Positions 2,511 to 27,419 of a stretch of DNA of 64,000 nt are shown piece by piece. The notes below the pieces were generated by a model. The model made no database searches. It was not told where the DNA came from and worked only from the letters and a program-made list of their open reading frames with translations. A program made the translations under genes and the position numbers. This DNA is from Candidatus Levybacteria bacterium CG2_30_37_29 (GTDB lineage Bacteria > Patescibacteriota > Microgenomatia > Levybacterales > GWA1-39-11), in the NCBI GenBank assembly GCA_001873215.1, contig MNYS01000002.1:28395-92394 (forward strand), in the 5' to 3' direction. Every line of letters begins with the position of its first letter. Positions within the stretch are counted from its first letter, which is position 1.

Positions 2511-2531
2511 ATTCTAAAAAGAGTATATCAT

Positions 2532-4340: not shown

Positions 4341-4370
4341 ATTTTTATTACATCAAGCAAGCAAATTTAT

Positions 4371-4604
4371 TTATCGGTCTGGTTCCAAATAGCTATCAAG
4401 CCAGGGCATTGGTCTACCAAGTGGGTATACACGTGTCGGAATCATCTCTATGCCATTAAAAAATCTTATAATATGATTTGGGTTAATATCTGTTTCATAC
4501 GGTTGTTTGGGCCTAAACGCGCCAAACTCAGCATAATCGGGAATATCCATTCCCTGCATGCTTATTAATGTTCTTCTTGTCATGTGTTTTTTTGATTCTT
4601 TCAT
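4371..4604 (-). CDS. Hypothetical protein (approx. 77 aa)
   Basis: Minus-strand ORF in the recJ-aspS gap. Start placed at MKESKK, preceded by an A/G-rich stretch. No family recognised. Confidence 0.35.
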   Translation of the reverse strand: MKESKKHMTRRTLISMQGMDIPDYAEFGAFRPKQPYETDINPNHIIRFFNGIEMIPTRVYPLGRPMPWLDSYLEPDR

Positions 4605-4759
4605 AATTTTCCACAAAAAAACCCCCGCTTTGTTTTGGGAGTTTGTTCAGCTTTTATTCCGCGCAAACTTCCCTAGCTTCGAATGAAGCTAAGGATAGTG
4701 CGCTTTAATGAACAAAATATTTTCATGCTTACTTTTCATGCTAGCACAGTAAAAAGTGC

Positions 4760-4788
4760 TTGTCAAGTAAGGCTGGTCAGTGTATTAT
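4760..4788 (+). promoter_or_regulatory. Sigma70-like promoter TTGTCA-17 nt-TATTAT immediately upstream of the aspS start
   Basis: Near-consensus -35/-10 with 17-nt spacer. The predicted transcription start falls at about 4795-4797, on the GTG at 4796, which implies a leaderless or near-leaderless aspS mRNA. Confidence 0.4.
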
Positions 4789-4795
4789 TAAGGTT

Positions 4796-9997: not shown

Positions 9998-10365
9998 TTG
10001 AGCATAGGTCCCTTTTGCAATCTTTTCATCATGCTTGGGCAGGAGTTGTTTTTGCAGTAAAAAATAATCAAAACATAAGAATTCATTTTATTATTGCAGT
10101 ACTTGTTGTTATAGTTGGATTTGTTTTAAATGTAAGTGCATTTGAGATTGGAATCTTAGGAGTTATGATTTTGTTCGTTTTTTCAGCAGAAATGATAAAT
10201 ACAGCTATTGAGGAAATGACAAATTTAATTACCCGTGAGCACAGGGCAGAAGCAAAAATTGCAAAAGATGTTTCTGCAGGAATGGTTTTAGTTGTGTCGG
10301 TCGGAGCGGCAATGGTAGGAATACTTGTTTTTCTTCCACACATTCTTGAGTTGACAGGTATTTAA
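9994..10365 (+). CDS. dgkA: Diacylglycerol/undecaprenol kinase, prokaryotic DgkA family
   Basis: 123 aa with 3 TM helices. Signature SAEMINTAIEE, and a conserved layout with an N-terminal amphipathic helix. Confidence 0.8.
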   Translation: MIEHRSLLQSFHHAWAGVVFAVKNNQNIRIHFIIAVLVVIVGFVLNVSAFEIGILGVMILFVFSAEMINTAIEEMTNLITREHRAEAKIAKDVSAGMVLVVSVGAAMVGILVFLPHILELTGI

Positions 10366-10625
10366 TTTTTTCTTTCTGTTTTTGATTGATTTGTGGTAAG
10401 TGCCAAAATTTCAGAAAGCTTTTTTACAAATTTTTCTGCGTGTTGTCTACTCATTCCAAGACGTGTTACGACTTGAAGTTCAGAATTACTTCCGGGAATT
10501 TTTTGACAAACGTCAAAAGTAACCCCGTCCTCATTCACATTCATAAAAACAGTGTCTGTAAAAAGGATTGGAATATTATTTGAGTGAAGATGGAAATTAA
10601 GATTTTCTTCCGTTTTTTTTGCCAT
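10362..10625 (-). CDS. DUF3467-like small protein
   Basis: About 88 aa. The C-terminal SRQHAEKFVKKL resembles the DUF3467 TPQHAKRLLKAL motif. Start moved to MAKKTEE. Confidence 0.45.
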   Translation of the reverse strand: MAKKTEENLNFHLHSNNIPILFTDTVFMNVNEDGVTFDVCQKIPGSNSELQVVTRLGMSRQHAEKFVKKLSEILALTTNQSKTERKN

Positions 10626-10642
10626 TTTTATCACCCCTTTTT

Positions 10643-10981
10643 TTATCTAAGTGTAGCCCCGGGTTTAACTTTTGTTGCAGGTTTAATAAGAGCCGGTTTG
10701 TCAGTGTTTGTTGCAAGTATCATAGCGTGACTTTCAAGTCCCATCATTTTTCGCGGTTCAAGATTTGTTGCAAAAATGAAAGATTTTCCAATTAAATCTT
10801 TTGGGCTGTACCATTTTGCAATTCCCGACAAAACCTGCCTGCCGGCAGGCAGGCCTACCTCGTTTTCTTCTCCAAAATCAACTTGAAGTTTTAGCAATTT
10901 TTCAGAATCTTTAATTGGTTCAGCAGATAGAATTTTCCCAACTTTTAATTCGACTTTTGCGAAATCATCAAAATTTATCAC
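10643..10981 (-). CDS. tRNA-binding protein (CsaA/Trbp111/EMAP-like OB-fold domain)
   Basis: DFAKVELKVGKI...DFGEE...RQVLSGIA...GKSFIFATNL matches the tRNA-binding-domain family. Contains the 20-nt palindrome encoding LPAGRQ. Confidence 0.8.
   Translation of the reverse strand: MINFDDFAKVELKVGKILSAEPIKDSEKLLKLQVDFGEENEVGLPAGRQVLSGIAKWYSPKDLIGKSFIFATNLEPRKMMGLESHAMILATNTDKPALIKPATKVKPGATLR
10834..10853. repeat. Perfect 20-nt palindrome CCTGCCTGCCGGCAGGCAGG, in frame inside the tRNA-binding protein gene (encodes LPAGRQ)
   Basis: Read directly from the sequence. A GC-rich island within an AT-rich CDS. Identical to the copy at 13138-13157. Confidence 0.9.
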
Positions 10982-11032
10982 TTTTTAATTATATCACCAA
11001 TTTTTAACTTTAAACTTTACACTTTTAACTAT

Positions 11033-12559
11033 TTATTCCCACTCCATAGTCGCGGGGGGTTTTGTGGTTATATCATAAACGACGCGGGAAATTCCCGGGA
11101 CTTCATTTACGATTCTTGAGGAAATTACTTGTAGTAGGTCATATTCCAATCGCGACCACGTTGTTGTCATAATGTCCTTTGACTCAATAATTCGAAGTGC
11201 AACAACTTCACCAAAAAATCTTCCATCTCCTTTTACAGCTGTTGAGTGTGCATCAGTCATTACAGGAAAAGAAATAAAAACTTTAGGAAGCCATCCTGCC
11301 TTTTCCAGTTCTTTAATTACGATCTTATCTGCTTGTCTCTCTTTTGATAAACGATCAGCTGTTACTTCTCCTCTAATTCGAATCGCGTATCCAGGACCGG
11401 GAAAGGGTTGTTTCATAACAATATTTTCAGGTAAACCAATTTTTCTCCCCAATACTCTAACTTCATCTTTATATAATTCTCGAAGCGGTTCCAATAGTTG
11501 TAGTTTCATTTCCTTGGGAAGTCCACCTACATTGTGATGGCTTTTAATCTTGCTTGCGTGTTTTGTTCCTTTTGATTCGATTACGTCAGAGTAAATAGTT
11601 CCTTGAAGCAAGAATTTTACAGCTTGATTTTTTAAAACAAGACGTTTCATTTCGCGTTCGAATACTTCAACATAAAAATTTCCAATAGCCTTTCTCTTTT
11701 TCTCACTATCTGTAATACCCTTTAGCTTTCTTAGCATTTCGGGTTCAACATGAACAACTACAGGTTTAATTCTCAGAGGCTTGAAAGCTGTTGTGACTGT
11801 AAGTTCTGCGTCATCCCTCATAAGACCGTTATTAACAAAAACCGGTATAAATTGCTTTCCGATAGCTTTTGCAACAAGTGTTCCGGCAACTGTCGAATCT
11901 ACCCCGCCAGAAACAGCACCGATAACGTATGCATTACCGACTTTTTGTTTAATATCTTGAATTATTGTTTTGGGATCTATCGTATGATTAATTTTTTTAA
12001 TACCGCAGATACTAATAAAATTATCAAGAATTTGGTTTCCAAACTCCGTATGTTCGACTTCGGGATGGAATTGGACTCCGTACTTCTTATTTTTCTCATC
12101 TGTGACAAATGCATAGCGTACATTTTCACTTGATCCGACAATGGTAAAGTTTTTAGGAATAGAAAGAACCGAATCTCCGTGGCTCATCCATACAGTAAGT
12201 GTTTTGGGTAGACCCTTGGTAATCTTTGAATCCTGTTTGACCAGCTTTATTTTAACCGGACCATATTCTTTAGTTCCCGGTTTTACTTTACCGCCCAAAA
12301 GGTGAGATCTAAGCTGAAGCCCGTAGCAAATATCAAGCATCGGTATATTAAGAGAAAAAACCTTTTTATCAATCGTTGGTGAATTTTTTTCATAAACCGA
12401 TGCAGGTCCTCCTGAAAATATCAGTCCTTGTGGTTTTACTTTTTCAATTTCTGACAATGCGTTTTCAGGTTCTATAAGATGCGTTGAAACTCCAAGATCG
12501 CGTAGGCGACGGGATATAAGGTGTGCTGTTTGTCCGCCAAAATCAACAATTATAATCAT
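11033..12559 (-). CDS. guaA: GMP synthase (glutamine-hydrolysing)
   Basis: N-terminal class I glutamine amidotransferase (IIIVDFGGQ, catalytic ICYGLQL). ATP-PPase SGGVDS motif. C-terminal dimerisation domain. 508 aa. Confidence 0.9.
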   Translation of the reverse strand: MIIIVDFGGQTAHLISRRLRDLGVSTHLIEPENALSEIEKVKPQGLIFSGGPASVYEKNSPTIDKKVFSLNIPMLDICYGLQLRSHLLGGKVKPGTKEYGPVKIKLVKQDSKITKGLPKTLTVWMSHGDSVLSIPKNFTIVGSSENVRYAFVTDEKNKKYGVQFHPEVEHTEFGNQILDNFISICGIKKINHTIDPKTIIQDIKQKVGNAYVIGAVSGGVDSTVAGTLVAKAIGKQFIPVFVNNGLMRDDAELTVTTAFKPLRIKPVVVHVEPEMLRKLKGITDSEKKRKAIGNFYVEVFEREMKRLVLKNQAVKFLLQGTIYSDVIESKGTKHASKIKSHHNVGGLPKEMKLQLLEPLRELYKDEVRVLGRKIGLPENIVMKQPFPGPGYAIRIRGEVTADRLSKERQADKIVIKELEKAGWLPKVFISFPVMTDAHSTAVKGDGRFFGEVVALRIIESKDIMTTTWSRLEYDLLQVISSRIVNEVPGISRVVYDITTKPPATMEWE

Positions 12560-15802: not shown

Positions 15803-16018
15803 TTATTCACTTATAAACTTAAAACGGTGAACTTTTTTACCATTTATTTCAACTTCTTCAAAAAACATTTTCATTGGACGTATCCAGAATTTACTTTTTG
15901 GATTTTTATATAGTGCTTCGTACACTACAAATTCTTCAAGCGTTTCGGAGTGTTTTGCTATAGCAATAACTCTGTAATAATTTCCTGTTTTAGAATGCTG
16001 ATATTTACCCAATTTCAT
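15803..16018 (-). CDS. DUF1653 family protein
   Basis: MKLGKYQHSKTGNYYRVIAIAKHSETLEEFVVYEALY...FWIRPMKMFFEEVEINGKKVHRFKF matches the DUF1653 consensus YRHYKG.YY.V...A.HSETLEE.VVY.ALY...W.RP..MF. Start set to the internal Met; the longer track ORF looks over-extended. Confidence 0.6.
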   Translation of the reverse strand: MKLGKYQHSKTGNYYRVIAIAKHSETLEEFVVYEALYKNPKSKFWIRPMKMFFEEVEINGKKVHRFKFISE

Positions 16019-16392
16019 CTGCAGAACGCACCACTTTAGACCCATTATATCACTCCCGGAAAAACCGTTTGCATAATCAAGATATAGGTCGATATGTGTT
16101 TTTATCAGTAGCGACTTGATACTTAGCAATTGCTTTATCTGTAATCTCTGACATATTTTATGCTTAATCATGTGGGTAGGGTTGCAGACCTGCCCGTCTT
16201 TGCTGCATAGATTGTATCCTGTGAGAACCTATTATGTCCAGCAGGTAATGCAGGTCGATTTGAATTACATCAACGCTATTCTACTCAACGAACAAGCCCA
16301 AGTATCGAATCAATATCAAGATAGAAGCACCGAATATTTAGTAGCAAGGAAGTATTAGAACCTAGTAAATAAGATGTATAATAAAGAGGAAT

Positions 16393-16923
16393 ATGATTCC
16401 ATTCCATCCTCATTTTCAATATGGCGCTGCAACAGATAATTGGACTGCGTGGGAGGCTATAGGTACTATTGCAGCAGCTACGGTATCTTTCTTTACGTTA
16501 CTTTTGCTTAGAAGTCAGCTCGAAAAAGAGCAAGAACCATTCGTTGTAGCCCGTGATGATGTTTCTTTCGAAAGTGGCAATTTCAAGATAAAGCTAAAAA
16601 ATGTAGGAAGAGGACCAGCTTTTAATATAACAGGTTGTCGAACATCAAATGAGAAAGAACGGAATGACGCTTTTTTTATGAGCAATCAACCTCATAGCAA
16701 AAATCTTTGTGCAAACAACGCTGATGCGGAAGGTGAAAAGCAATGGAGAATTGATAAATTTGTTATAGATTCACTAAAAGTGGATAAAACTAACAAGGAG
16801 ATTTATAAATACTTCTATTTTTTTTATGAGAGTCAATTGGGTTCGGTTTACCATACAAAAGTTAAGATAAAAAAAGATGGAGATAATTTTATAGTGATGG
16901 AGAATACGCGATTAAAATTATAG
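16393..16923 (+). CDS. Hypothetical protein with N-terminal TM helix (176 aa)
   Basis: TM helix AIGTIAAATVSFFTLLLL. No family recognised. Appears operonic with the downstream 307-aa protein (40-nt gap). Confidence 0.45.
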   Translation: MIPFHPHFQYGAATDNWTAWEAIGTIAAATVSFFTLLLLRSQLEKEQEPFVVARDDVSFESGNFKIKLKNVGRGPAFNITGCRTSNEKERNDAFFMSNQPHSKNLCANNADAEGEKQWRIDKFVIDSLKVDKTNKEIYKYFYFFYESQLGSVYHTKVKIKKDGDNFIVMENTRLKL

Positions 16924-16963
16924 AAAAGAATGCAGTAGTCTCCTTAAGCTATAATTCAACCAT

Positions 16964-17887
16964 ATGTCAGTAGTTGTGGGCTTCGGTTTTCCAGAAGAAG
17001 CAATACTCATAAGTGATAGTAGAGTTTCATTTGACGAGCCAAGGCTTGAGCCTCGTGATGAAATTAGAAAAATCTACCAGTTAGGCAAACATTTGACAGT
17101 TGGCTTCACCAGTCAGCATGTCCAATTTACATTAGAAATATTAAGGAGAATTACAAATTACTCGTTAAACAAATCAAAATCACAAGCTACTTTATATCTA
17201 TTAGACAAAGTTCCAAAAGTAGCAAGATATTTTTATAATCAGCTCTCTGAGAAGGTAGGATGGAAACCACCAATGGAAATAGTCTACGCTGGCGTTGTAA
17301 CCGACAGATACCTGGGTGTATCGGAGCAACTCATATTTGATTTAATGAAAAATAAAGGTGGCGGACATATTCCAACGAAAATTGCGATTGGCATGCAAAA
17401 TACCCAAAACGGGATTATGAATTTACCTCCCCCTTCTCCTGTCGTGACAAAACAAATTTTTCCCTCAGGCGAAATACTCCCGCTAGTCTCTCTTGGTTTC
17501 GTTGTATCTGGAACTGGTTCAGGAATCGCCAAGAAAATTCAGGAATCTGAAGCTGAATTGTTTTTCGCAGATTCCGAAATACCAATGAGATTATCTATGA
17601 TAAGAATGCTTTGCGATGATTACATTAAAGAGGCGAGTGTCGACACTATCGGAGGACTAGTTCAAATATTGAAAGTTAACGAAAAAGGTATTTTCCCAAT
17701 GATATACTCGCGTACAAATATTAGCCCAGAGGGTAAAGAGATTAAGGCTGAAACATTAAGTTTTGTTAATGGAGAATGGATTATGGAATATCACCAGACG
17801 GGGAAAATTATCCGTGTTAAACAAAATCCTTTAATTATGGATATAAAGAAAAATGTTAATGTTAAAAAACAGTCTTGGGCAGCCTGA
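16964..17887 (+). CDS. Hypothetical protein with an HslV/proteasome-beta-like (Ntn-hydrolase-like) N-terminal region
   Basis: MSVVVGFGFPEEAILISDSRVSF...IRKIYQLGKHLTVGFTSQHVQFTLEIL parallels HslV TTIVSVRR.G.VVIGGDGQ.S....KVRRLY.GKVLAGFAGGTADAFTLFE. Ser occupies the position that would be exposed after Met removal. Inference from pattern only. Confidence 0.4.
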   Translation: MSVVVGFGFPEEAILISDSRVSFDEPRLEPRDEIRKIYQLGKHLTVGFTSQHVQFTLEILRRITNYSLNKSKSQATLYLLDKVPKVARYFYNQLSEKVGWKPPMEIVYAGVVTDRYLGVSEQLIFDLMKNKGGGHIPTKIAIGMQNTQNGIMNLPPPSPVVTKQIFPSGEILPLVSLGFVVSGTGSGIAKKIQESEAELFFADSEIPMRLSMIRMLCDDYIKEASVDTIGGLVQILKVNEKGIFPMIYSRTNISPEGKEIKAETLSFVNGEWIMEYHQTGKIIRVKQNPLIMDIKKNVNVKKQSWAA

Positions 17888-18144
17888 TATACTAATAGTT
17901 AGTAACAAGACCGAAAGATAATCAACTATAGAAGTACCACTCGGAGTAACATTTTTCAAAAAAGTAGAGCTTTACCAAAAAATCGAGCTCTCTGAGGGAA
18001 TTATAGGGATAAATAGGCATCTCGGTCAGAAGCTATAGGTTATTTGGCTGGCACTGGTTGAGGATTTCAGAACTGCAAACTGGACTGAAATCATCAAATA
18101 TCCAGAGCTAGTATATCAAAAATCAGAAGGATATCTTCAGCTAT

Positions 18145-18747
18145 TTAACTGATAAGTTTCTTTTTCTTTGCTTCTTCAATAATTTGTTTCATCATTGTAT
18201 TTACATCTATTAGATATGTTTCAACATTTTCTTTTATGAAAATATCTTTTTTTAACTTAGCGGAAGGTAATTCCCATTTGTTATTTATATAGTCTACATA
18301 TAAATGTCTCCACTTTAATTTTTCTGTTTCTCCTTCCTCAATCTCCTTAATGCTTTTTAGAATTTCTTTTATTGAATTATTTATATCCTCAATAGTTCTC
18401 CCTTCTAAGAATTTAGGATTATTTTTCTTTATATCTTCAAAGTTTTCTCTTAAAAGATTTTGTCCTACGAGCATCATTTTAATCAAACCAGTTTGCTTAA
18501 ATTTATGGTCTCTAAATGTCTTCCAAAATTCTTGCCAATCAACTGTTTTATTCTCTATGAGGTTTATTGCAACAAGCCCTAGATAATATGCTTTTGATAG
18601 CTCTTCAATAGCTATTGCATATAGAAAAGTTGCAGTTGGAGATTTTGCTTTTTCTAATAAGTTACCATCGTCTTTTATTTTATGTGCGTTATATAGCATT
18701 TTATCCATTCCCACTATACATTGAGTAATATCAAGATTTGTTTTCAT
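18145..18747 (-). CDS. AbiV-like abortive-infection family protein (putative)
   Basis: 200 aa, all-helical. The AIAIEELSKAYYLG segment resembles the conserved A.EE.GK core of the AbiV family. Size matches AbiV (about 200 aa). Moderate confidence. Confidence 0.45.
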   Translation of the reverse strand: MKTNLDITQCIVGMDKMLYNAHKIKDDGNLLEKAKSPTATFLYAIAIEELSKAYYLGLVAINLIENKTVDWQEFWKTFRDHKFKQTGLIKMMLVGQNLLRENFEDIKKNNPKFLEGRTIEDINNSIKEILKSIKEIEEGETEKLKWRHLYVDYINNKWELPSAKLKKDIFIKENVETYLIDVNTMMKQIIEEAKKKKLIS

Positions 18748-18814
18748 AAGTTATATTTTCTTATAATCTTTCTAAAGTTAAAAAGCAATCATTCTTAAAT
18801 GCTACAATAATGAT

Positions 18815-19207
18815 ATGACGAAACTCACTCCTGATGAGAGGTGGAAAAGATTTAATCAGAAACTAAATGAGCAAATGAAAGCTAATGATTTCTACAGTTT
18901 AGGTATTACTTATCAAGAGATGGCTAACTTCTTAGATAAAGAAGGGAAAAATTCAGAAGAAATGCGAAATAAAGCTTACGAAATGAAACTTTTGCATCAC
19001 CAAAACTATATTAAAAACCTACAGAATAATTCTCCGGTAAGTAAAGGTGTTGAGATACTTTCAGCACCTGATAGTTGTGAAAGTTGCTTAGCTTTAGATA
19101 GTAAGGCATTTGAGTTTAAGAAGGTTTTAGATAGTCCACCACTCCCCGTAAAAGAGTGCAAGCATATTTACGGGTGTAGATGCACATATCTTCCTGTAGC
19201 AAATTAA
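18815..19207 (+). CDS. Hypothetical Cys-rich protein; C-terminal GCRCTY motif reminiscent of the phage Mu-F/SPP1 gp7 head-morphogenesis domain
   Basis: CESC...C..YGCRCTYLP cysteine cluster. Similarity to the MuF H.NCRC motif is by pattern only. Confidence 0.35.
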   Translation: MTKLTPDERWKRFNQKLNEQMKANDFYSLGITYQEMANFLDKEGKNSEEMRNKAYEMKLLHHQNYIKNLQNNSPVSKGVEILSAPDSCESCLALDSKAFEFKKVLDSPPLPVKECKHIYGCRCTYLPVAN

Positions 19208-19902
19208 GTTTTTTCTACAATTTTAATTTCAAATTCAGGAGTTAAGAGAACTTGTTTTCCAGTATGTTCATATTCAAATTTATCAGCCCTTCCTCTATAG
19301 GGATGTATAAAACTATGCTGTTCTTTAGTTGAAAGAACTTCATCATAATCTAAATCTATCGCAAGCGTATTCGGATAAAGCTGTATTATTCTCCATGTTT
19401 TAGCATCTGGCGTTACATCACCTAAATACCATATGTCCTTAACTTTAGGATTTATCTCTTTTAGTTTTTGGTTTAATTCAACGGCGGGTGGAACTACTTG
19501 GTTTCTCCTTATGTAACAGACAAGGGTAAGGTTAGGGTCAACAATTTTGTTAAGTTTTATTTTCTTTAATGCTTCTAAAAAATCTCCTTCATTATCTTCT
19601 TTTCTGTATTCAAATACTTCAAGTTTAATTTCAGGTCTTTCGCTTCCCCCTATTTTTTTGTTGTGAATAAAAGTATAGCAATAGAAATCCGGTGAACCTG
19701 ATTTTATTTCTGGCTTGAAAAACCATTCCTCTCCCGAATGGTTTTTAAGTCCGAGCAAAAACATTGCTGTTATCCAAGCTTCCCTTGTTACTTTATATTT
19801 TCTATCTGTAAAGATTGTATCTCCAATACTCAAATAGGTTCTTGCAAATAAGCGGATTGCAGTATAAGGATGTATAAGTATTTCTTCGCTTGAATTTTTC
19901 AT
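19204..19902 (-). CDS. Hypothetical protein (232 aa), weak PD-(D/E)xK-like pattern
   Basis: GSPDFYCYTF ... EIKLEVFEYRK could be a degenerate PD...ExK nuclease core. Unverified. Last gene of the minus-strand operon. Confidence 0.4.
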   Translation of the reverse strand: MKNSSEEILIHPYTAIRLFARTYLSIGDTIFTDRKYKVTREAWITAMFLLGLKNHSGEEWFFKPEIKSGSPDFYCYTFIHNKKIGGSERPEIKLEVFEYRKEDNEGDFLEALKKIKLNKIVDPNLTLVCYIRRNQVVPPAVELNQKLKEINPKVKDIWYLGDVTPDAKTWRIIQLYPNTLAIDLDYDEVLSTKEQHSFIHPYRGRADKFEYEHTGKQVLLTPEFEIKIVEKT

Positions 19903-19933
19903 ATTGCGGCTATTTTATTATAAGGAAGAAAAT

Positions 19934-20848
19934 TTAACGAGTGGCAAGTTTTTTTAATCCTCGCTTCTGAACAAAGAGAAGTAGAAGCATCCTATTCAAA
20001 TTGGCAATATTAGCCATATCTTCTAATAGTTTTGTTTCATTCTTTACTCCACCCAAAAATCCACCTTCCCATTCTCCGCCAGCGAGTAGTCCATCATGAA
20101 GAAAGTTAGACCTTAAATTATGATAAAGTTTTTTTGTCATTTTCACGGCAGTATCAACATTTGAACCGGTAATAAGGCTTCTTATTAGCTTTTCTATTTC
20201 ACTTGCATGACTTGTTTCATGCTTTTTATTTATCTTTTCCCCACAATCAGGACATACTAAAAAAGATGAACAAATTGGTTTAGGATTATCTGCTAATTGG
20301 TTTATAGAAGACAACAAGAGTGTCATATAAAGAGTATATTTCAGATGTGGATTTGGTAATCTTTGGATATCCTCTGCCCACACAAATGTTTGCAAAGCTT
20401 TTTCAAATCTCATGAGTTCATCAGCATTGAGCTTTTGCAAGAGCTTACAGAAAAAGAATAATTTACCGACAGGATTAAGTTCATTTACTATTCCACCATA
20501 GCTTATGCCTTTTTCATAGAATGTTTGAGCTTTATATTTTTTGAATACATCTTCAAAACCATTCAGTCCAACAATATCTTGCGGTGCTGTATCTGAAGGC
20601 AAACCTGTAGTTAGAAGCAGGAGATTGCTAATTCTATAAAGATTTCTATACATGTTTGAAGAAGTAAGAGGCTTTATTGTTTCTAAATATAGAAAGGTTT
20701 TTTGTTTATCAAAAGCCCTTTTGTTATCTGGATTTCCTGCAAATAATATTGCACTTTTTATGTCAGAGTGAGGTAAAGCTACCAACTCATAATAAGGTTG
20801 TTCATTATTGTAAATATTAAGATGATATAAAAATAAGTATCTGGACAT
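19934..20848 (-). CDS. Hypothetical protein (about 304 aa) with CPDCGEK zinc-ribbon-like motif
   Basis: Start moved to Met32 to remove the overlap with the upstream nuclease gene. No family recognised. Confidence 0.4.
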   Translation of the reverse strand: MSRYLFLYHLNIYNNEQPYYELVALPHSDIKSAILFAGNPDNKRAFDKQKTFLYLETIKPLTSSNMYRNLYRISNLLLLTTGLPSDTAPQDIVGLNGFEDVFKKYKAQTFYEKGISYGGIVNELNPVGKLFFFCKLLQKLNADELMRFEKALQTFVWAEDIQRLPNPHLKYTLYMTLLLSSINQLADNPKPICSSFLVCPDCGEKINKKHETSHASEIEKLIRSLITGSNVDTAVKMTKKLYHNLRSNFLHDGLLAGGEWEGGFLGGVKNETKLLEDMANIANLNRMLLLLFVQKRGLKKLATR

Positions 20849-20907
20849 TAGGGCTATAGCATATTTACGATGTATTATATTACAAATGAGGCTAAGATAT
20901 AATCGCT

Positions 20908-21882
20908 TTATTGCTGACAATGCAATGGAGCACCATCGCAAGCTATACCGTCTCCATCAGCATCTCTAACAGAGCACCCACATGTATTTAATTGGTATTG
21001 TGCTTCTGCACATGAAGAAATTTGGGTGCATGTTTTACTGCAGTTACAGGAATAACCACCTGTATTTTGTTGATATGTGTTATTTGTTGCAGGCGTTTGA
21101 GAGGTAGACTGACTTGCCGGCTTGGGGGTTGTTGAAGAACATGCACTCCATAACCCTTTGTTATTTGTTCTTGCTTGTTGCTCTGCTTGTCGTAATTTGT
21201 CTTGATATTTTATATCTGGCGGATAAGAAACTGCATGAGCGTATCCTTCGCTTACCAGAACTTGATTGATAAAAAGGTCTCCCATATACACATAACGCAA
21301 TAGCCTTCCATATCTGTCAGTTTCAGAAATATCCTTCTCAAGCCCTACAATACCATTTCCAACGAGTTCTTGGTTCTTTGCTGATGCTTCTTTACCATAA
21401 CATTGAACTGATTTTCTTGGGTCAACAGTTTCAGGGGTATCAATTCCTATATATCTAACGGTTTTCTTGTTGCCATTTCCTAAATCTACCTCAATGGTAT
21501 CTCCGTCAATTATTCTTATTACCCGAGCAAGCACTATATTTGCATTTGCCGGTGCAGTTTGTGGTTTCCATGTTGGAGTGGGAGAAGTATCTGATATAGA
21601 AGGCTTAGTAGCTTGAGATTGATTAAAATCTACCTTTTCTTCTTGTTTTTGTGCTTGCTTAGGAGTAGTTGAAGATAAACCTGCCACCCATGCACTGCCT
21701 ATAAAAAGTGTCAATAAGGCAATAAGAGCAATTACTCCATATTTTGCCTTCTTATTTCCTATCTTCTTATACGCAAAATAACCCGCACCAATTCCAATTA
21801 CAAAAGGAAGGAATGGTAGAGCGAGAATACCTATAGCAGGAACTGTGAGAAATTTTCTTTTACCTATAAATAATTTCTTCAT
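20908..21882 (-). CDS. Membrane-anchored thermonuclease (staphylococcal nuclease/SNase fold) with C-terminal Excalibur Ca-binding domain
   Basis: N-terminal TM helices. SNase motifs ARVIRIIDGDTIEV...VRYIGIDTPE...RYGRLLRYVY. Low-complexity T/S/P/Q linkers. C-terminal Cys-rich DADGDGIACD, the Excalibur DxDxDGxxCE signature. Confidence 0.8.
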   Translation of the reverse strand: MKKLFIGKRKFLTVPAIGILALPFLPFVIGIGAGYFAYKKIGNKKAKYGVIALIALLTLFIGSAWVAGLSSTTPKQAQKQEEKVDFNQSQATKPSISDTSPTPTWKPQTAPANANIVLARVIRIIDGDTIEVDLGNGNKKTVRYIGIDTPETVDPRKSVQCYGKEASAKNQELVGNGIVGLEKDISETDRYGRLLRYVYMGDLFINQVLVSEGYAHAVSYPPDIKYQDKLRQAEQQARTNNKGLWSACSSTTPKPASQSTSQTPATNNTYQQNTGGYSCNCSKTCTQISSCAEAQYQLNTCGCSVRDADGDGIACDGAPLHCQQ

Positions 21883-21928
21883 GCTTGGGAAGTATTATAC
21901 TACTAACAATGCGGATGTTTAATTTGTT

Positions 21929-22636
21929 TTATAACGAATTGCTAGGTTTAGTTCCCAGAAATACTAAACTAAAACCATTTTTCACATATACACAACCTAC
22001 ATTAAAATCACCGAGAATAATTTCTTTAGTTCCATCTTTCTTATCTCGAAGAAACTCAATAGCTCTGTCTGCTGTCTTGGTAATCACCCATAACTCTGTC
22101 ATTGGAGCATATTGGTTTAGTCCTGCATTTTCTACCCATTGGTCAAAACTTTCTTGCTGATTATTTGGGTCTTTTTTCAAGATTTGATATCTGCTCTCTA
22201 ACTTATTACAGATTGATGGCTCTAAAATAATAGGTTCCACATCATGTTTTTTCCTATACTCGTTTAATTTTCCAAATACTTCATTACTTGTAAATTCCCA
22301 TTCTTTGGGGGCTGTAGAGCTTACTGGATATTGTTGTTTGAATTGAACGGCATTTACAAAAATGTAAATTCCAAAAAGTAGAAAAATTGCAAATATAATT
22401 TTTGAAGCTATGCTTTTTATGCTAAATTTCTTTGAAAGAATAGGTTTTGCAAGGAAAAAAAAGATAATTACAGATAAAATGAGAACCGAAAATTTATCAA
22501 GCACATATCCTCCGCTTGTAAACTGTTGAGCTTCTACGCTTCTATCAAGAGTATTGTAAGTAAAAAGAAGCCAAACATATAGAGCACCTACAAAAGCTAG
22601 AATTCTTAATACCGGTTTTATTATTTTTCTAAACAT
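21929..22636 (-). CDS. Hypothetical membrane protein (3 TM helices + soluble C-terminal domain)
   Basis: Hydropathy read from the translation. Operonic with the nuclease gene. Confidence 0.45.
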   Translation of the reverse strand: MFRKIIKPVLRILAFVGALYVWLLFTYNTLDRSVEAQQFTSGGYVLDKFSVLILSVIIFFFLAKPILSKKFSIKSIASKIIFAIFLLFGIYIFVNAVQFKQQYPVSSTAPKEWEFTSNEVFGKLNEYRKKHDVEPIILEPSICNKLESRYQILKKDPNNQQESFDQWVENAGLNQYAPMTELWVITKTADRAIEFLRDKKDGTKEIILGDFNVGCVYVKNGFSLVFLGTKPSNSL

Positions 22637-22640
22637 TTTA

Positions 22641-22949
22641 CTATAGTTTTCTTATCCATTCGTATAATAACCCAAAGGGTATAATTGATATATCCTCTAT
22701 TTTACTTCTAAAAATTATCATTATGACCCAAGATAAAATTACAATTTTCCAATCAAAGAAAAAGAAAATTATAGTTGAGACAATAAATGCAATCATTACT
22801 AGAACAAATAGCAACTGAATAATCAAGGAGTTGAGCAGGAGAGGTCTTTCAAAAGCATGTGTCTTGCCATATCTTCCATAATATGAAGTGCAACCGGAAA
22901 AGAATAAATACATTACACTTAGTGCTATAAATTCTATATTCATACTCAT
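22641..22949 (-). CDS. Hypothetical small membrane protein (102 aa)
   Basis: Three hydrophobic segments. First gene of the minus-strand operon, divergent from the XRE regulator. Confidence 0.4.
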   Translation of the reverse strand: MSMNIEFIALSVMYLFFSGCTSYYGRYGKTHAFERPLLLNSLIIQLLFVLVMIAFIVSTIIFFFFDWKIVILSWVIMIIFRSKIEDISIIPFGLLYEWIRKL

Positions 22950-23054
22950 CTAATGTATTTAAATTATAGCTTATCTTAATCAATTTACAAGGCGAGTATT
23001 AAGGTTAAAAGGGCTATATAAAGACAATTTGAATGTTTAGGTTAATGGAAAATA

Positions 23055-23081
23055 GCAGTATATGGCTTATTATTATACTGC
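23055..23081. promoter_or_regulatory. Inverted repeat GCAGTATA-N11-TATACTGC spanning the start codon of the XRE regulator (candidate autoregulatory operator)
   Basis: Perfect 8-bp arms read directly. Lies in the divergent intergenic region between the HTH gene and the 5-gene minus-strand operon. Confidence 0.4.
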
Positions 23082-23286
23082 TAAAATTAGAGAGGAGATT
23101 GGCAAAAATATACAAAGGTCTAGAAAAAGAAAAGGATTGAAACAGGTTGATGTAGCTGTAGATGCGGGAATAAACACAAGCTATTATGGGAAAATAGAAA
23201 GGGGAATTGTCAACCCTTCTCTTGAAAAACTTTTTAGAATAATTAAATCTCTAAAAGTTAAATCCTCTGATATACTCCCTTTTTAG
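23062..23286 (+). CDS. XRE-family helix-turn-helix transcriptional regulator
   Basis: 74 aa. LKQVDVAVDAGINTSYYGKIERG is a classic Cro/C1-type HTH. Confidence 0.7.
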   Translation: MAYYYTAKIREEIGKNIQRSRKRKGLKQVDVAVDAGINTSYYGKIERGIVNPSLEKLFRIIKSLKVKSSDILPF

Positions 23287-23351
23287 TGGGAAAGTGTGAG
23301 TAAATACTCTGTATATCCCTATATGAATAAGGTGTTTACAGTAGGGAGCGT

Positions 23352-23777
23352 CTAGCTACGCCCCAACGTTTGTAGAAGCATTTCTTCTAGATGACCCTTT
23401 ACCTGCTCCACAAAGGCATGAAGGTTCTGATAGTCCTTCCAAACAATCCTTTTGACACCCTTTGCTTCTAGCTCTTGGTTATAAGGGGGTATAGAGGATA
23501 TGCCTATTATTTTATTAGGCGGGTATTTATTAAAGTCTAAGACATGAAAGCTTCCTGATGCAAAGCAATCACGGTCAAGAAGTATTATGTCAAATACATT
23601 CCTTGATACTTTATTTAGGTATTCTTCTACCTGCGTATATTCAGAAAGAACTGTAATTGCTATGGATAATCTATCCTCAAAGTGTTTTTGAAGCTTATAC
23701 AGGCATTGTAGAAGCAGAGAAAGGGTTTCCACATCGTCCTCCAACAGGAGTATTCGTATGTCTTTTAGCCTACCCAT
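23352..23777 (-). CDS. Standalone response-regulator receiver (CheY-like) domain protein
   Basis: IRILLLEDD acidic pocket, phospho-acceptor DIILLDRD, and GISS / K-like downstream residues. No output domain. 141 aa. Confidence 0.6.
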   Translation of the reverse strand: MGRLKDIRILLLEDDVETLSLLLQCLYKLQKHFEDRLSIAITVLSEYTQVEEYLNKVSRNVFDIILLDRDCFASGSFHVLDFNKYPPNKIIGISSIPPYNQELEAKGVKRIVWKDYQNLHAFVEQVKGHLEEMLLQTLGRS

Positions 23778-23928
23778 CTTATCTAAAATATAGCTTACCT
23801 TTACTTATTAAACAAGGTAGGATGGGGGGCTGGACACAAACCCTATTTGATTTATGACAAGAATATAATAAATAGTGGCGAGCATTGGCGTGTAAAAAAT
23901 ATAGGCTAAATGGTAAAATAGAGCTAAT

Positions 23929-24606
23929 GTGAATATGAATGACAATAGTTTATTTTTAGGTTTATCTCCTCATGCGGATGCTGTTAAAAGTTTAAGCAAT
24001 GAGAATTTAGAATTACTTGATAAGACTGTTCGGGAAATTTTGCGGAAAAACGAACTATCAGCTTTTCAGGAAATAACATTTGATGCCGACCCAAATACAA
24101 AAGAAACAGTGGATTATCTCAATAGGCATATTCTTCATAAAAATATCAATACAAATTCGGAGCGGATAATTTTAGACCTTTCAGAAGAAGATATAGAAGC
24201 CTTGTATAGGTGTAGTCAAGCAATAAAGGATGAGAAAGAAAAGAGGCAGATAATAAGCCCATTAAATAATGCAGGCGTAGATAAAATAAAAATCCCTGCT
24301 GGATGGACGCTAGAAGAAGATGAAAAAGGTAGGGCTTTCCTTAACAGGAATGGAAAAGTTATGTTTGAATTCAAGCATAATTGGACAAATAAGTATAAAT
24401 ACTTTAAGGTAATGTGGGAAAATTATGGTCAAAAGGTTGATTATAAAATTGTCTACGAGTTTCGTTCAAAGCTAATCTACCCGGAAAAGGGTGTATCCAA
24501 ATTCAATAGTAACATGCGAAACACCATAAATAAATTAAGAAAAGAAATGAAACATTTACCTATTAAAATTAAAACATCAAAGGGTTTTCAACTCCTTATA
24601 AGATAA
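23929..24606 (+). CDS. Hypothetical protein (225 aa)
   Basis: No family recognised. Lies within the mobile element. Confidence 0.4.
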   Translation: MNMNDNSLFLGLSPHADAVKSLSNENLELLDKTVREILRKNELSAFQEITFDADPNTKETVDYLNRHILHKNINTNSERIILDLSEEDIEALYRCSQAIKDEKEKRQIISPLNNAGVDKIKIPAGWTLEEDEKGRAFLNRNGKVMFEFKHNWTNKYKYFKVMWENYGQKVDYKIVYEFRSKLIYPEKGVSKFNSNMRNTINKLRKEMKHLPIKIKTSKGFQLLIR

Positions 24607-24683
24607 ACTACCCCCGAAAAGCTCTTAAAAGCTCTATTTCGCTCTAATAGACAGGCTCTAATTGTGCCCTTTATATTAAGCTC

Positions 24684-24929
24684 ATGATTATAAATGATAA
24701 TAAAAATCATTTCCAAACTTCAGATTTAGCATTAGCTTCTTTTCTGTCCCTTACCTACCCTATTGAAAAGATAGATAAATCAAACCCCAAACGGGCAGAA
24801 TTTGTCTTTAAGAACCCTGAAGAACTACATAATCTGATTGATACCTATTGGCAAGGTAAGGCAAGAGTTGAACCACAAGTATTCTTCAATCAATTAAAAA
24901 TTGTAAAAGCTCGTTTATATGGAGAATAA
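24684..24929 (+). CDS. DUF5659 domain protein
   Basis: TSDLALASFLSL...PKRAEFVFKNPEEL..LIDTYWQGKARVEPQVFFNQLKIVKARLY matches the DUF5659 pattern (TSDL.LASFL...P.R.VFVFE...EL....FW.G.ARV.P..FF.AL...K.RIY), common in phage/plasmid contexts. Confidence 0.55.
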   Translation: MIINDNKNHFQTSDLALASFLSLTYPIEKIDKSNPKRAEFVFKNPEELHNLIDTYWQGKARVEPQVFFNQLKIVKARLYGE

Positions 24930-24933
24930 ATTT

Positions 24934-25080
24934 ATGTTGAGTAAGCCTTTATTAGAAGAACTAAGACAAATAATGAAAAGAAAGTATAGTTTGGAGCTTA
25001 ACGATAAAGAGCTTTTTGAGTTTGCCAACTCACTTGTAGGCTATTTTGACTTACTCTTGAAAGGAAGTCTAAGAAAATAA
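24934..25080 (+). CDS. Small hypothetical ORF (48 aa, MLSKPLLEELRQIMKRKYSLELNDKELFEF...)
   Basis: ATG ORF below the track cutoff that tightly fills the gap between DUF5659 and the next gene. Helical. Confidence 0.3.
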   Translation: MLSKPLLEELRQIMKRKYSLELNDKELFEFANSLVGYFDLLLKGSLRK

Positions 25081-25082
25081 GT

Positions 25083-25814
25083 ATGGCAAAAGCACGAATG
25101 CTACATAAAAAGATTTCTGTTTCAACACAGGTAAATAAACTTTACTTACCCGCAAGGCTTCTTTTTACATGGATGATTGCACACGCAGATGATGAAGGTA
25201 GGTTGAAAGGAGATGCAGATTACATAAGGGCGATTGTTGTCCCAATGACAAAGTGGTCTTTCAAAAAGATAGGAAATTATCTTGAAGAAATAAAAAACGC
25301 AGGACTTATTTATTACTGGCAACAAAATGGTGAGTGGTTTGTAGAATTTATAAAATGGCGAGAGCATCAAAGCATAAGAAGTGATAGATATATTTCTTCA
25401 TTGCTACCCTCATTTATGAAAGGGACTGATGACAAATTGGCTACCAATAGTCAACCGGATGACAACCAAAAGCCTACTCAAGATAATATAGTTCAATCCA
25501 AAATAAAACAAGAGAATTTTAATAAAAGCGAATATAAGGAAGACGCCGATAAAACATCTAAAGTCATAAACCCTAGAACCTTTACACCAAGCAATGATGG
25601 AGAGAGTATTGCCTTAGAAACATATAAGCGGTTAGAACCGAATAACCCATTTGCATTTCAAGCTACCTATCTAAAGGCTCTAAAAAGAGGTTTGCCTCTA
25701 CATTTGTTCGGTGAATTCGCTAGTCAAATAGAACAAGATAACTCTGTTAAAAATCGGGGTGCAGTGTTTAATATAAAAGTTGATGAATACTTTGAAAACA
25801 GAGTTCGGAAATAG
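25083..25814 (+). CDS. Hypothetical protein; N-terminal region resembles phage replication-initiator/replisome-organiser winged-helix domains (tentative)
   Basis: LPARLLFTWMIAHADDEGRL...YLEEIKNAGLIYYW pattern. Low-complexity acidic/polar middle. Function inferred weakly. Confidence 0.35.
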   Translation: MAKARMLHKKISVSTQVNKLYLPARLLFTWMIAHADDEGRLKGDADYIRAIVVPMTKWSFKKIGNYLEEIKNAGLIYYWQQNGEWFVEFIKWREHQSIRSDRYISSLLPSFMKGTDDKLATNSQPDDNQKPTQDNIVQSKIKQENFNKSEYKEDADKTSKVINPRTFTPSNDGESIALETYKRLEPNNPFAFQATYLKALKRGLPLHLFGEFASQIEQDNSVKNRGAVFNIKVDEYFENRVRK

Positions 25815-25863
25815 TCCTATGAGCCTTATTGCAAAACAAAATAAAAGAGGGATAATTAAGAAA

Positions 25864-27408
25864 ATGAGAATGAAAATAGTATCATTTGCCAGAGTTTCTA
25901 CAAGAGAGCAGGCAGAGGAAGGCTACTCTTTGCCTGCCCAAGAGAAACTACTCAACGAGTATTCTTTCCGACATAGCGATTGGGTAAATATCAAACACTT
26001 TGCAGTTCCTGAAAGTGCATCCGGAAAGCAAGAGAGGAAAGTGTTTAACATACTTTTGGATTACCTAGATACACATAAAGATATTAAAGTTCTTCTTTGT
26101 GAAAAAGTTGATAGAATTTCTAGAAATTTTAAGGATGCGGTTAGGCTTGACGAATGGTTAAATGAAGACGAAGAAAGACAAATACATTTTGTTAAACAAA
26201 ATCTAGTAATACATAAAAACTCCCGTTCCCACGAAAAATTCCAATGGGATATGTATATTGCTCTTGCAAGGCAATATAGCAACAACCTTTCAGAAGAAAC
26301 AAAAAAAGGTCTTTATGAGAAAGCAGAGCAAGGTTGGTTTCCGGGCAATCACAAGAGGGGGTATAAGTGTATTGGAGATAGAGGACATAAAATATGGGAG
26401 ATAGACCAAGAAAAACCAGACGCAAAGTATATTGAGATGGGATTTGTCTTATTCAACACAGGTAACTTTACATTACGAACACTTGCAGTTGAGCTATTTA
26501 AGCAAGGATGGAGTGTTAAAACTAAACCTATTTCAATAAGTGAGCTTCACAAACTTTTAACTGACCCCTTCTATTGCGGTGAGTTTATTTTTAGAGGGAA
26601 GCATTATAAGAATGGTAAGCATCAGCCTTTAGTTTCCCAAGAACTCTTTTATAGCGTTCAAGAGCGTTTGCAACGCAAAGTAAAAGCAGGTAAATACAGA
26701 AAGCATCATTTTCTTTTTGGTGGTGGTTTAGCTACCTGTGGCGAATGTGAAAGAACAATTACATGGGAGCTTCAAAAAGGACACCATTATGGGCGTTGCA
26801 CGAAACACAAGACAAGCTGTTCCCAAAAAGCATATACAAGAGAAGAAGATGTCCAAGGACAAGTTCTTACATACCTAGATAAATTAAGAATTGATGACCC
26901 TGAATTACTTGAATGGGTTAGGAAAGCCTTAAAAGAAGCACACAGGGCAGGAAGCGAATATCATGAAGATATTGTTAAAGAACTTGATACACAATATCTT
27001 AGGGTCAAGAATAGGTTGGATGTTCTCTATGATGATAGAGCTGATGGTCTGATTTCAAAAGACCAATACGAATATAAAAAAGGTCAATACGAAAAGCAAC
27101 TAAACGACATTGTAGAGGCAAAGCAAAAACACTGCAAGGCAAATATAGACTACATGAGATTAGGAATAAACATTTTTGAACTTGCACAAAGGGGGCGTGA
27201 AATCTACGAAAAGAAACTCTTAATGGAAGAAAAGAAGGAGCTACTCAACTTTGTATTTTTGAACCTTAAAATCAGGGATAAAAAGGTCATTCCTAGCTTC
27301 AAAAATGGGTTTGAAGTGGTGGCAAAGCGGGCAGAAGATGGGAATTGGCTGGGAGTCAGGGATTCGAACCCCAATAAACAGGTCCAGAACCTGTTGTCCT
27401 ACCATTAG
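25864..27408 (+). CDS. Large serine recombinase (resolvase/invertase catalytic domain + recombinase domain + zinc ribbon)
   Basis: MRMKIVSFARVSTREQ catalytic Ser motif, DRISRN, and a Cys cluster CGECERTITW...GRCTKHKTSC. AGAGGG RBS upstream. The ORF 3' end runs into the tRNA-Gln sequence, so the true stop/att overlap is uncertain. Confidence 0.8.
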   Translation: MRMKIVSFARVSTREQAEEGYSLPAQEKLLNEYSFRHSDWVNIKHFAVPESASGKQERKVFNILLDYLDTHKDIKVLLCEKVDRISRNFKDAVRLDEWLNEDEERQIHFVKQNLVIHKNSRSHEKFQWDMYIALARQYSNNLSEETKKGLYEKAEQGWFPGNHKRGYKCIGDRGHKIWEIDQEKPDAKYIEMGFVLFNTGNFTLRTLAVELFKQGWSVKTKPISISELHKLLTDPFYCGEFIFRGKHYKNGKHQPLVSQELFYSVQERLQRKVKAGKYRKHHFLFGGGLATCGECERTITWELQKGHHYGRCTKHKTSCSQKAYTREEDVQGQVLTYLDKLRIDDPELLEWVRKALKEAHRAGSEYHEDIVKELDTQYLRVKNRLDVLYDDRADGLISKDQYEYKKGQYEKQLNDIVEAKQKHCKANIDYMRLGINIFELAQRGREIYEKKLLMEEKKELLNFVFLNLKIRDKKVIPSFKNGFEVVAKRAEDGNWLGVRDSNPNKQVQNLLSYH

Positions 27409-27419
27409 ACGAACTCCCA
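27346..27419 (-). tRNA. tRNA-Gln (anticodon CTG)
   Basis: Manually folded cloverleaf: acceptor TGGGAGT/ACTCCCA, D-stem GTCT/GGAC, anticodon stem ACAGG/CCTGT with loop TTCTGGA, T-loop TTCGAAT, discriminator G, and an encoded CCA. Confidence 0.8.

Follow-up and report, generated by a model that had tools for sequence, protein, structure and literature searches.

A 64,000-nucleotide (nt) stretch of contig MNYS01000002.1 from Candidatus Levybacteria bacterium CG2_30_37_29 (hereafter the window, numbered from its first letter) carries, between positions 16393 and 18747, three adjacent genes encoding a membrane protein of 176 amino acids (aa), a proteasome-like hydrolase of 307 aa, and, on the opposite strand, an AbiV-family protein of 200 aa. 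An earlier note, made from the sequence alone, had read the first two genes as a candidate defense module lying within a mobile element. The analysis reported here leads to a different account, which we consider likely to be correct: the three genes are mutually independent neighbors, namely, a unit made up of the hydrolase gene and an upstream leader or small open reading frame (ORF), a cassette carrying the 176-aa gene, and an integrative element carrying the AbiV gene. This account is built on the fold of the hydrolase, the conservation of its active site, the unconserved pairing with the 176-aa gene, the architecture of the insertions, and the boundaries of the element, all of which were observed.

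The gene pair in related loci

All three ORFs lie where the earlier note had placed them. The spacer between the 176-aa and 307-aa genes is exactly 40 nt, as claimed, and that between the 307-aa and 200-aa genes is 257 nt. The features of the pair and its immediate flanks are as follows (bp, base pairs).

16200-16358, + strand: conserved leader, probable small ORF of ~52 aa (blastn, frame conservation, codon periodicity)
16363-16945, + strand: inserted cassette of ~585 bp with its own TATAAT box, Shine-Dalgarno sequence, and the 176-aa gene; missing in L012, L017, and L019
16377-16382, + strand: TATAAT box of the 176-aa gene (upstream alignment)
16393-16923, + strand: 176-aa ORF (ORF list)
16950-16955, + strand: TATAAT box 8 nt before the hydrolase ATG, present in all relatives (upstream alignment)
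16964-17887, + strand: 307-aa ORF (ORF list), proteasome-like N-terminal-nucleophile (Ntn) hydrolase (Pfam, family profile, structure prediction, Foldseek)
17928-17983, + strand: remnant of a 175-aa gene that is the 3' neighbor of the homolog in L012 (1159-1686 there), with the start changed from ATG to ATA (alignment)
18145-18747, - strand: 200-aa ORF (ORF list)

We compared 12 independent contexts of the hydrolase gene with four contexts in which the 176-aa gene is solitary. The hydrolase contexts (L and P numbers designate related loci and proteins), with the identity of the hydrolase to the window protein and the neighboring genes, are listed below.

Window and L015 (one lineage): 100%; 176-aa gene upstream
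L016: 93%; 176-aa gene (79% identical) upstream
L017: 92%; upstream without the 176-aa gene
L012: 87%; upstream without the 176-aa gene
L019: 79%; upstream without the 176-aa gene
L009/L010: 75%; upstream without the 176-aa gene
P0004 contig: 64%; unrelated 274-aa gene upstream
L006: 39%; unrelated 354-aa gene upstream, in an integrase island
L001-L004: 39%; divergent Mg-chelatase-type AAA+ gene upstream
L005: 35%; between the transketolase and ribulose-phosphate epimerase genes
L100: profile match, E 2.8e-109; two unknown genes (353 and 343 aa) upstream, in a serine-recombinase element
L101: profile match, E 3.0e-24; 216-aa gene on the opposite strand, CBASS pair 4 kb off

The 176-aa gene is present in two of these 12 contexts, and the hydrolase gene in none of the four solitary 176-aa contexts. 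At the DNA level (blastn), the segment corresponding to window positions 16192-16363 directly abuts 16945-17900 in L012, L017, and L019, leaving a clean ~585-bp indel between the two. Given the rarity of co-occurrence and the clean indel, we regard the two-gene module as refuted by the measure that the earlier note itself had set, a conserved pairing of the two genes.

According to that proposal, the 176-aa membrane protein and the protease would form a two-gene abortive-infection or effector module, for example, a membrane sensor or effector that is activated or processed by the protease. The two genes are indeed closely spaced and co-directional with no terminator found between them, the pair recurs in L016, and a tRNA integration hot spot adjoins this variable region. 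However, in addition to the low co-occurrence, the homologs with 92%, 87%, 79%, and 75% identity lack the partner through the clean indel, each gene has a separate -10 box, neither protein has a PADLOC match, and the adjacency of AbiV results from a later insertion of an element, as discussed below. We consider such a module very improbable and, on the broader question of a defense role for the pair, lean towards no. Among the upstream genes of the distant homologs (354, 353, 343, and 216 aa), another conserved partner was sought and rejected: these genes show no mutual homology and no Pfam or PADLOC match.

The 176-aa gene behaves as a unit of its own. Solitary copies occur in L011 (85% identity), L013/L014 (83%), L007 (75%), and L008 (56%), none of them beside a hydrolase gene, and by blastn these five loci match the window only at ~16335-16938. 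Since the window and L016 share the left junction, a single ancestral insertion of the cassette explains both, and we propose that this separately mobile, self-promoted cassette would have inserted once, in the ancestor of the two lineages. In L009/L010, the same site holds a different insert of ~400 bp (L009 184-582) with an ORF for a 113-aa membrane protein on the opposite strand, and this gene recurs elsewhere in L017 (3708-4037). The pattern suggests that the junction between the small ORF and the hydrolase gene was struck twice independently, by small self-promoted cassettes moving by some mechanism. A search for long inverted or direct repeats flanking the 176-aa/307-aa pair gave chance-level matches only. 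On the downstream side, blastn homology between the window and L012 reaches 17983, inside the pseudogene remnant of the L012 175-aa gene. In L011, a tRNA-Gln gene (anticodon TTG; 7254-7325) lies ~1.5 kb from the solitary 176-aa gene, which hints that tRNA-Gln neighborhoods are hot spots of variable genes in these genomes.

The single N-terminal transmembrane helix that had been predicted for the 176-aa protein was recovered as one hydrophobic segment at residues 21-39 (mean Kyte-Doolittle 1.81). The AlphaFold2 (AF2) model, with a mean predicted local distance difference test (pLDDT) score of 79, consists of a long helix (17-46) followed by a C-terminal beta-sandwich domain that carries the motif KNVGRGPA; its best Foldseek match in the PDB is generic immunoglobulin-like, at E 0.029. 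The protein has no match in Pfam, NCBIfam, PADLOC, or PHROGs, and its 16 homologs are all without informative annotation.

The AbiV gene and the integrative element

The third gene was correctly recognized as AbiV-like in the earlier note. Its product scores 62.9 bits with Pfam HEPN_AbiV (PF18728; cut-off 27.1) and 63.6 bits with TIGR04498 (cut-off 27), well above both thresholds. Like Lactococcus AbiV, a HEPN protein, it belongs to the Pfam and TIGRFAM families and is located on a mobile element, the usual setting of Abi genes; it differs in that the PADLOC AbiV score is weak, just 19 bits, and in that the gene is unassociated with the hydrolase or the 176-aa gene at other loci. The features that delimit the element are as follows.

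18016-18052: attL-like junction, GGCAnnnCGGnCAGAAG...TTGGCTGG; L015 diverges right after 18052/18053
18053-27344: integrative element, ~9.3 kb (Pfam, PHROGs, PADLOC)
18145-18747, - strand: AbiV-family (HEPN) gene, 200 aa (Pfam PF18728, 4.9e-17; TIGR04498, 2.4e-17)
23062-23286: XRE-type repressor, in the element
25083-25814: replication initiator, in the element
25780-27408: large serine recombinase, the ORF overlapping the 3' end of the tRNA
27318-27352: attR-like repeat, overlapping the 3' end of tRNA-Gln(CTG)
27346-27419, - strand: tRNA-Gln(CTG) (ARAGORN), followed by the Lon gene

Three lines of evidence define this element. L015 is 99.95% identical to window positions 15979-18052 and then diverges completely; in L016 and L018, no more than ~780 nt separate the hydrolase gene from the tRNA-Gln(CTG) gene downstream of it; and an exact 8-nt repeat, TTGGCTGG, is found at 18045-18052 and, in the 3' end of the tRNA gene, at 27345-27352, inside an imperfect ~35-nt repeat (GGCAnnnCGGnCAGAAG...TTGGCTGG). 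Together, the divergence of L015, the short spacing in the relatives, and the repeats lead us to conclude that a ~9.3-kb element is integrated between the hydrolase gene and the tRNA gene. In addition to AbiV, its cargo includes proteins of 130, 232, and 335 aa with no assigned function, membrane proteins, and a membrane-anchored SNase/Excalibur nuclease that matches the PADLOC candidate C3a212 at 2.9e-36. The large serine recombinase, the XRE-type repressor, and the replication initiator form a typical integrative module, and close relatives lack the element.

Judged from these sequence boundaries, AbiV is the leftmost cargo gene of a serine-recombinase element and is unlinked to the pair. 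The AbiV-bearing element would have integrated later, at the nearby tRNA-Gln gene. AbiV is absent from all 19 related loci, including the 99.95%-identical L015, so that it adjoins none of the homologs, and the link to the pair drawn in the earlier note reduces to adjacency produced by this insertion. The placement of the pair within the element, inside a defense island, also did not hold, given that the element (~18053-27344) starts after the pair, which sits on the chromosomal flank. Past the att-like junction, at 2075-5198, L015 encodes an M48 peptidase and proteins of 200, 187, and 215 aa, a sign that a co-occurring strain may carry other cargo at this site.

Fold, relatives, and predicted mechanism of the hydrolase

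The N-terminal proteasome/HslV-like pattern quoted in the earlier note is present verbatim in the 307-aa protein, and the fold and profile evidence place it well beyond chance. With the single sequence, Pfam Proteasome (PF00227) scores 17.0 bits over residues 4-49, below the gathering cut-off of 22.4, and a PDB search returned chance matches only. Searching 5.8 billion proteins yielded 17 homologs, for which the sole source-given name is 'hypothetical protein' and of which two have a precomputed Pfam Proteasome match. In the alignment of these 17 sequences, M1, D18, S19, R20, D32, K36, F48, and T49 are invariant, and position 2 is S or T. The profile built from them matches proteasome beta subunits in the PDB at E 7.8e-5 in two segments: in the N-terminal segment, D18, R20, and K36 pair with D17, R19, and K33 of Plasmodium falciparum beta1, and in the second, SGTGSG and GGLVQ pair with the GSGS and SGGL motifs of the beta subunits.

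Structure prediction gave a concordant picture. The AF2 model (pLDDT 85.5; predicted template modeling score 0.86) has 936 Foldseek matches in the PDB below 1e-3. The best 50 of these are all 20S or 26S proteasome entries (core particles, complexes, and assembly intermediates); the lowest E is 4.4e-8, the probability is 1.0, and the template modeling (TM) scores are 0.65-0.71 when normalized to target length; phage-encoded proteasome homologs match more weakly (best E 1e-5). The guess of a proteasome-beta/Ntn fold was thus borne out by the AF2 model, Foldseek, and the family profile, and the assignment of the 307-aa protein to the proteasome-like Ntn-hydrolase superfamily, with a predicted intact active site, is supported.

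The key residues of the predicted active site are Ser2 (Ser1 once Met is removed), Asp18, Arg20, Lys36, Gly47, Gly183-Thr184-Gly185, Thr228, and Gly230-Gly231. Their conservation was counted over 143 family members, none shorter than 250 aa. Position 2 is T in 79 and S in 58, that is, in all 137 ungapped sequences; D18 is found in 141/141, R20 in 141, K36 in 141/142, and both G183 and G230 in 143/143, with D32 and G231 essentially invariant. The remaining positions are somewhat more variable: G47 is present in 101 members (A or S in the others), S or T at 184 in 137, and G185 in 139. Serine at the nucleophile position, as previously proposed, is confirmed as Ser2, within a conserved Asp/Arg/Lys/Gly-Ser-Gly set.

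Because the catalytic positions are near-invariant and S/T is universal at position 2, an active enzyme is favored over a scaffold. A catalytically dead scaffold, comparable to proteasome alpha or inactive beta subunits, might be suspected from the sub-threshold Pfam score and from Ser rather than Thr at the nucleophile position of the window protein. However, Ser1 is an accepted nucleophile in the proteasome-like superfamily (PMC8665760), and in view of the conservation across the 143 members we find a dead scaffold hardly credible.

The protein shares with the 20S beta subunit (PF00227) the alpha-beta-beta-alpha core with catalytic residues in register. However, it is 307 rather than ~200 aa long, the identity is only 9-17%, and it has neither an alpha-subunit partner nor a propeptide. 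Relative to the beta subunit, it contains two additions, a two-helix insertion of ~60 residues at ~113-176 and a C-terminal three-stranded beta extension at ~255-290 with conserved W272 and P289.

Two better known bacterial and archaeal relatives were considered and rejected. HslV (ClpQ) is likewise bacterial and has the proteasome-like fold and an N-terminal nucleophile exposed by removal of Met, a step predicted here. However, HslV is about 175 aa long, has no insertions, is encoded together with hslU, and is found in nearly all members of a species that has it, whereas the 307-aa protein has the insertion and the C-terminal extension and no hslU neighbor. HslV-type proteins appeared as weak matches in the viral library only. 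With the wrong size, the insertions, the missing hslU, and 20S beta subunits as the top structural matches, the 'HslV-like' label of the earlier note is too specific. Connectase, which is restricted to methanogens, resembles the window protein in length (about 300 aa), in an extra C-terminal beta domain, and in Ser/Thr1. The profile of the 307-aa family has no sequence match to connectase chains even at E <=10. Connectase, an archaeal monomeric, sequence-specific proteasome homolog that offers a precedent (PMC7980362), lacks helices H1/H2 and has a signature two-helix insertion between S3 and S4 (PMC8665760), whereas the model of the 307-aa protein includes H1 and H2 (53-70 and 76-98) and only a short S3-S4 loop.

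The closest parallels are found among the 22 new proteasome-like subfamilies described by Fuchs, Alva & Lupas in 2021, which have shared core residues and diverse insertions but no informative contexts and no AAA+ partners; many such homologs, it was argued, may be partner-independent (PMC8665760). Like these subfamilies, and PMI (proteasome homologs with multiple insertions) in particular, the 307-aa protein has no propeptide, the Thr1/Ser1-Asp17-Lys33-Gly47 core, insertions, a C-terminal extension, and no AAA+ partner. It is set apart from PMI, going by the published description, in that its insertion follows S6, between strands of the core (~113-176), whereas those of PMI are located after H2 and between H3 and H4 (PMC8665760). 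Nearly all of the close relatives come from metagenomes, and they are probably more recent than the 2020 nr search of Fuchs et al. The 307-aa protein is an uncharacterized addition to an already described wealth of proteasome homologs. The representative of PMI-3 has an accession with an OGZ prefix, presumably a marker of metagenome-assembled genomes from candidate phyla. In the literature searched, we found no follow-up characterization of the 2021 families and no paper tying proteasome-like or Ntn hydrolases to phage defense.

Catalysis, oligomeric state, and substrate, like the translation of the small ORF, are the parts of the three-neighbor account that we infer. In the proposed mechanism, methionine aminopeptidase would remove Met1 and expose Ser2, the free alpha-amino group of which would act as the base, and the hydroxyl as the nucleophile, on a peptide or amide bond. 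A proton relay of Asp18 and Lys36 (the counterparts of Asp17 and Lys33) would assist, Gly47 would form the oxyanion hole, and Gly183-Thr184-Gly185 and Thr228-x-Gly-Gly (equivalent to Gly128-Ser129-Gly130 and Ser169-Gly170) would support the active site. The enzyme would be cytoplasmic and cleave a specific substrate, and the insertion and the C-terminal extension would replace or cover surfaces on which the ring-forming proteasome subunits rely. The absence of a propeptide and of a dedicated AAA+ partner, combined with the insertion and the extension, points to a monomer or small oligomer with intrinsic specificity; by analogy with connectase, the hydrolase probably works in this manner rather than as an HslVU-type machine.

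The family is much larger than the initial set of homologs. An exhaustive search of 1.84 billion cluster representatives with a hidden Markov model detected 365 relatives at E <=1e-3 (clusters at 50% identity), including forms of ~310-340 aa and ~580 aa. Several distant members exceed the Pfam Proteasome threshold (P0059, 49.5 bits; P0062, 42.5; P0067, 28.7). The ~580-aa relatives (P0056, P0059, P0061, and about 40 others) are without the 113-176 insertion and have a C-terminal extension of ~330 residues containing DUF6941 (PF22091); this combination of a proteasome homolog with DUF6941 is an undescribed multidomain architecture. Across phyla, the distribution is patchy. Members are found on contigs spanning 35% to 65% GC, and because some occur at ~65% GC (L005, L101), the family is not confined to the Candidate Phyla Radiation (CPR). 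The window itself belongs to a CPR (Microgenomates) bacterium, its Lon protease being ~80% identical to Lon of Candidatus Levybacteria metagenome-assembled genomes. Among 185,579 species-representative genomes, exact peptide patterns of the window protein, which reach close relatives only, gave no confirmed relative, and tblastn of plasmid and phage collections with the window hydrolase and two distant relatives gave no match; the 176-aa protein likewise has no plasmid or phage match. Scanning viral contigs for both the hydrolase and the 176-aa families yielded nothing. PADLOC, NCBIfam, and PHROGs contain no match for either protein, and in the PADLOC-DB v2 models both have zero families at E <=0.1.

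Neighboring genes bear on whether the enzyme could be a housekeeping or stress protease of proteostasis, that is, an HslV/BPH/Anbu-like ring that degrades unfolded proteins, perhaps with a generic chaperone or AAA+ protein. In its favor are the proteasome fold with a complete catalytic set, the housekeeping contexts of L005 and L017, the argued partner-independence of many homologs (PMC8665760), and the Mg-chelatase-type AAA+ gene that is divergently adjacent in L001-L004. The latter gene (L001 5772-6842; 356 aa, Mg-chelatase/ComM-type) lies 127 nt from the 39%-identical homolog P0012, and its product is a possible unfoldase partner in that lineage. However, an AAA+ gene adjoins the hydrolase neither in the window nor in 11 of the 12 contexts, L001-L004 being the sole exception. 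Furthermore, the gene is accessory, given the outcome of the species-representative search within its reach, its placement varies even among close relatives, and HslV and BPH, which form rings, have neither the ~60-residue insertion nor the C-terminal extension. On balance, such a role seems unlikely. In L017, a gene for a C45-family Ntn hydrolase (2679-3698; Pfam AAT, 4.7e-22) follows the 92%-identical homolog after 48 nt, with only a 5' remnant in L016 (~4410-4520) and L018 (~910-1020); the adjacency of two unrelated Ntn hydrolases may be a coincidence.

The upstream small ORF and possible functions

The element that does accompany the hydrolase gene is a short leader. Positions 16192-16363 have 70-84% conserved counterparts (blastn) immediately 5' of the hydrolase gene in L012, L017, L019, L009/10, and L016, with the 176-aa cassette intervening in L016, and the leader is found with the hydrolase gene in every relative that is at least 75% identical. 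It probably represents a small ORF of about 52 aa. The ORF would start with TTG at 16200 (~52 aa) or, alternatively, with ATG at 16170 (62 aa), and its peptide reads LHRLYPVRTYYVQQVM.VDLNYINAxLxNEQ...YLVARKY*, or, over the loci that keep the frame, LHRLYPVRTY(Y/F)VQQVM.VDLNYINA.L.NEQ...YLVARKY*. Counterparts lie at L012 9-161, L016 2597-2749, L017 1524-1677, L019 5285-5413, and L009 26-175. The reading frame is intact in five of six loci, even across an in-frame 24-nt deletion, and the variable columns are distributed unevenly among codon positions 1, 2, and 3 (20/44, 11/44, and 30/44; chi2 16.5, p = 2.6e-4). The single database match is P0184, a 65-aa protein that starts one codon before LHRLYPV; as it stands alone among 5.8 billion proteins, gene-calling programs must pass over this ORF nearly every time. 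The TATAAT box in front of the hydrolase ATG would give this gene its own promoter and a nearly leaderless mRNA.

Other interpretations of the leader were examined and rejected. As a structured RNA, it has no Rfam match at E <=1, and its RNAalifold structure (-9 kcal/mol) contains just one covarying pair. An origin as the 3' end of some larger, widespread gene was discounted because the 65-aa protein is its only database match. The motif at its 3' end, AGCAAGGAAGTATTAGAACC, occurs once in the window, so a genome-wide repeat is not indicated. From the genomic evidence, the product of the small ORF is the only candidate substrate for the hydrolase.

This companion invites the idea that the small ORF and the Ser1 hydrolase constitute a compact mobile conflict cassette, with a function in defense, anti-defense, or a toxin-antitoxin-like system, in which the small protein would be a substrate, an inhibitor, or a labile antidote. 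The unit of ~1.1 kb has sharp homology boundaries and changing flanks (DUF1653, TauE, TrpF, and others); members occur within or next to elements with a recombinase or an integrase (L100, L006, L001), beside YaaC and an SNase homolog (L009), and 4 kb from a CBASS pair (P0065 in L101); and the distribution is patchy, with a wide GC range. Against this stand the absence of PADLOC, PHROG, plasmid, phage, and viral-contig matches, the plainly housekeeping contexts of L005 and L017, neighbors that share no homology across contexts, and a small ORF, of predicted translation, that is confined to the clade above 75% identity. A function of this kind appears doubtful. Among the tested neighbors, PADLOC gave no defense-consistent match, the AAA+ gene of L001 showing a marginal generic ATPase-type match (E 0.002-0.01; small sample). 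In L101, which comes from a 65%-GC organism, the CBASS pair (SMODS/DncV-like nucleotidyltransferase and SAVED effector) and a DUF4427 gene occupy 10253-12343, 1.4-5 kb from P0065.

Several observations weigh against the account of three independent neighbors. The sample is small, with 12 hydrolase and four partner contexts; the pair recurs once outside the window lineage, in L016; and given that no terminator was found between the two genes, they may be co-transcribed and have a lineage-specific functional link. The right flank of tRNA-Gln is non-syntenic between L016 and the window, and the 'empty site' comes from relatives rather than from the same strain. The Pfam score of the window protein is below threshold (17 vs 22.4 bits). 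Finally, the start codon of the small ORF is not uniform, the ORF is frameshifted in L017, and it is absent near hydrolase homologs of less than ~75% identity.

The results counsel caution: in variable regions of CPR genomes, two closely spaced genes that point the same way can owe their adjacency to the recent, accidental insertion of a cassette. A defense system that combines a protease with a membrane protein would have been notable for bacterial immunity, and the evidence removes that reading. Instead, what the locus offers as a true conserved companion of the hydrolase is a candidate small ORF that can be tested. A more far-reaching idea, which we rate as a long shot, is that, in CPR bacteria, the ~1.1-kb unit of the small ORF (~52 aa) and the Ser1 hydrolase makes up a mobile conflict cassette complete in itself. 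The protease would act on the small protein encoded beside it, whether antidote, inhibitor, or precursor, by processing or destroying it, and so set off a defense or addiction response, and the junction would be a hot spot that captures small self-promoted cassettes (176-aa here, 113-aa in L009). If true, this would be the first functional role for an orphan family of proteasome homologs and a new kind of protease-based conflict system. The family itself is sizeable (about 365 clusters at 50% identity) and essentially unannotated, with a strictly conserved proteasome-type active site; spanning CPR bacteria and unrelated high-GC organisms, it enlarges the pool of orphan proteasome homologs described in 2021. 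As the precedent of connectase indicates, orphan proteasome homologs can prove to be useful, highly specific enzymes.

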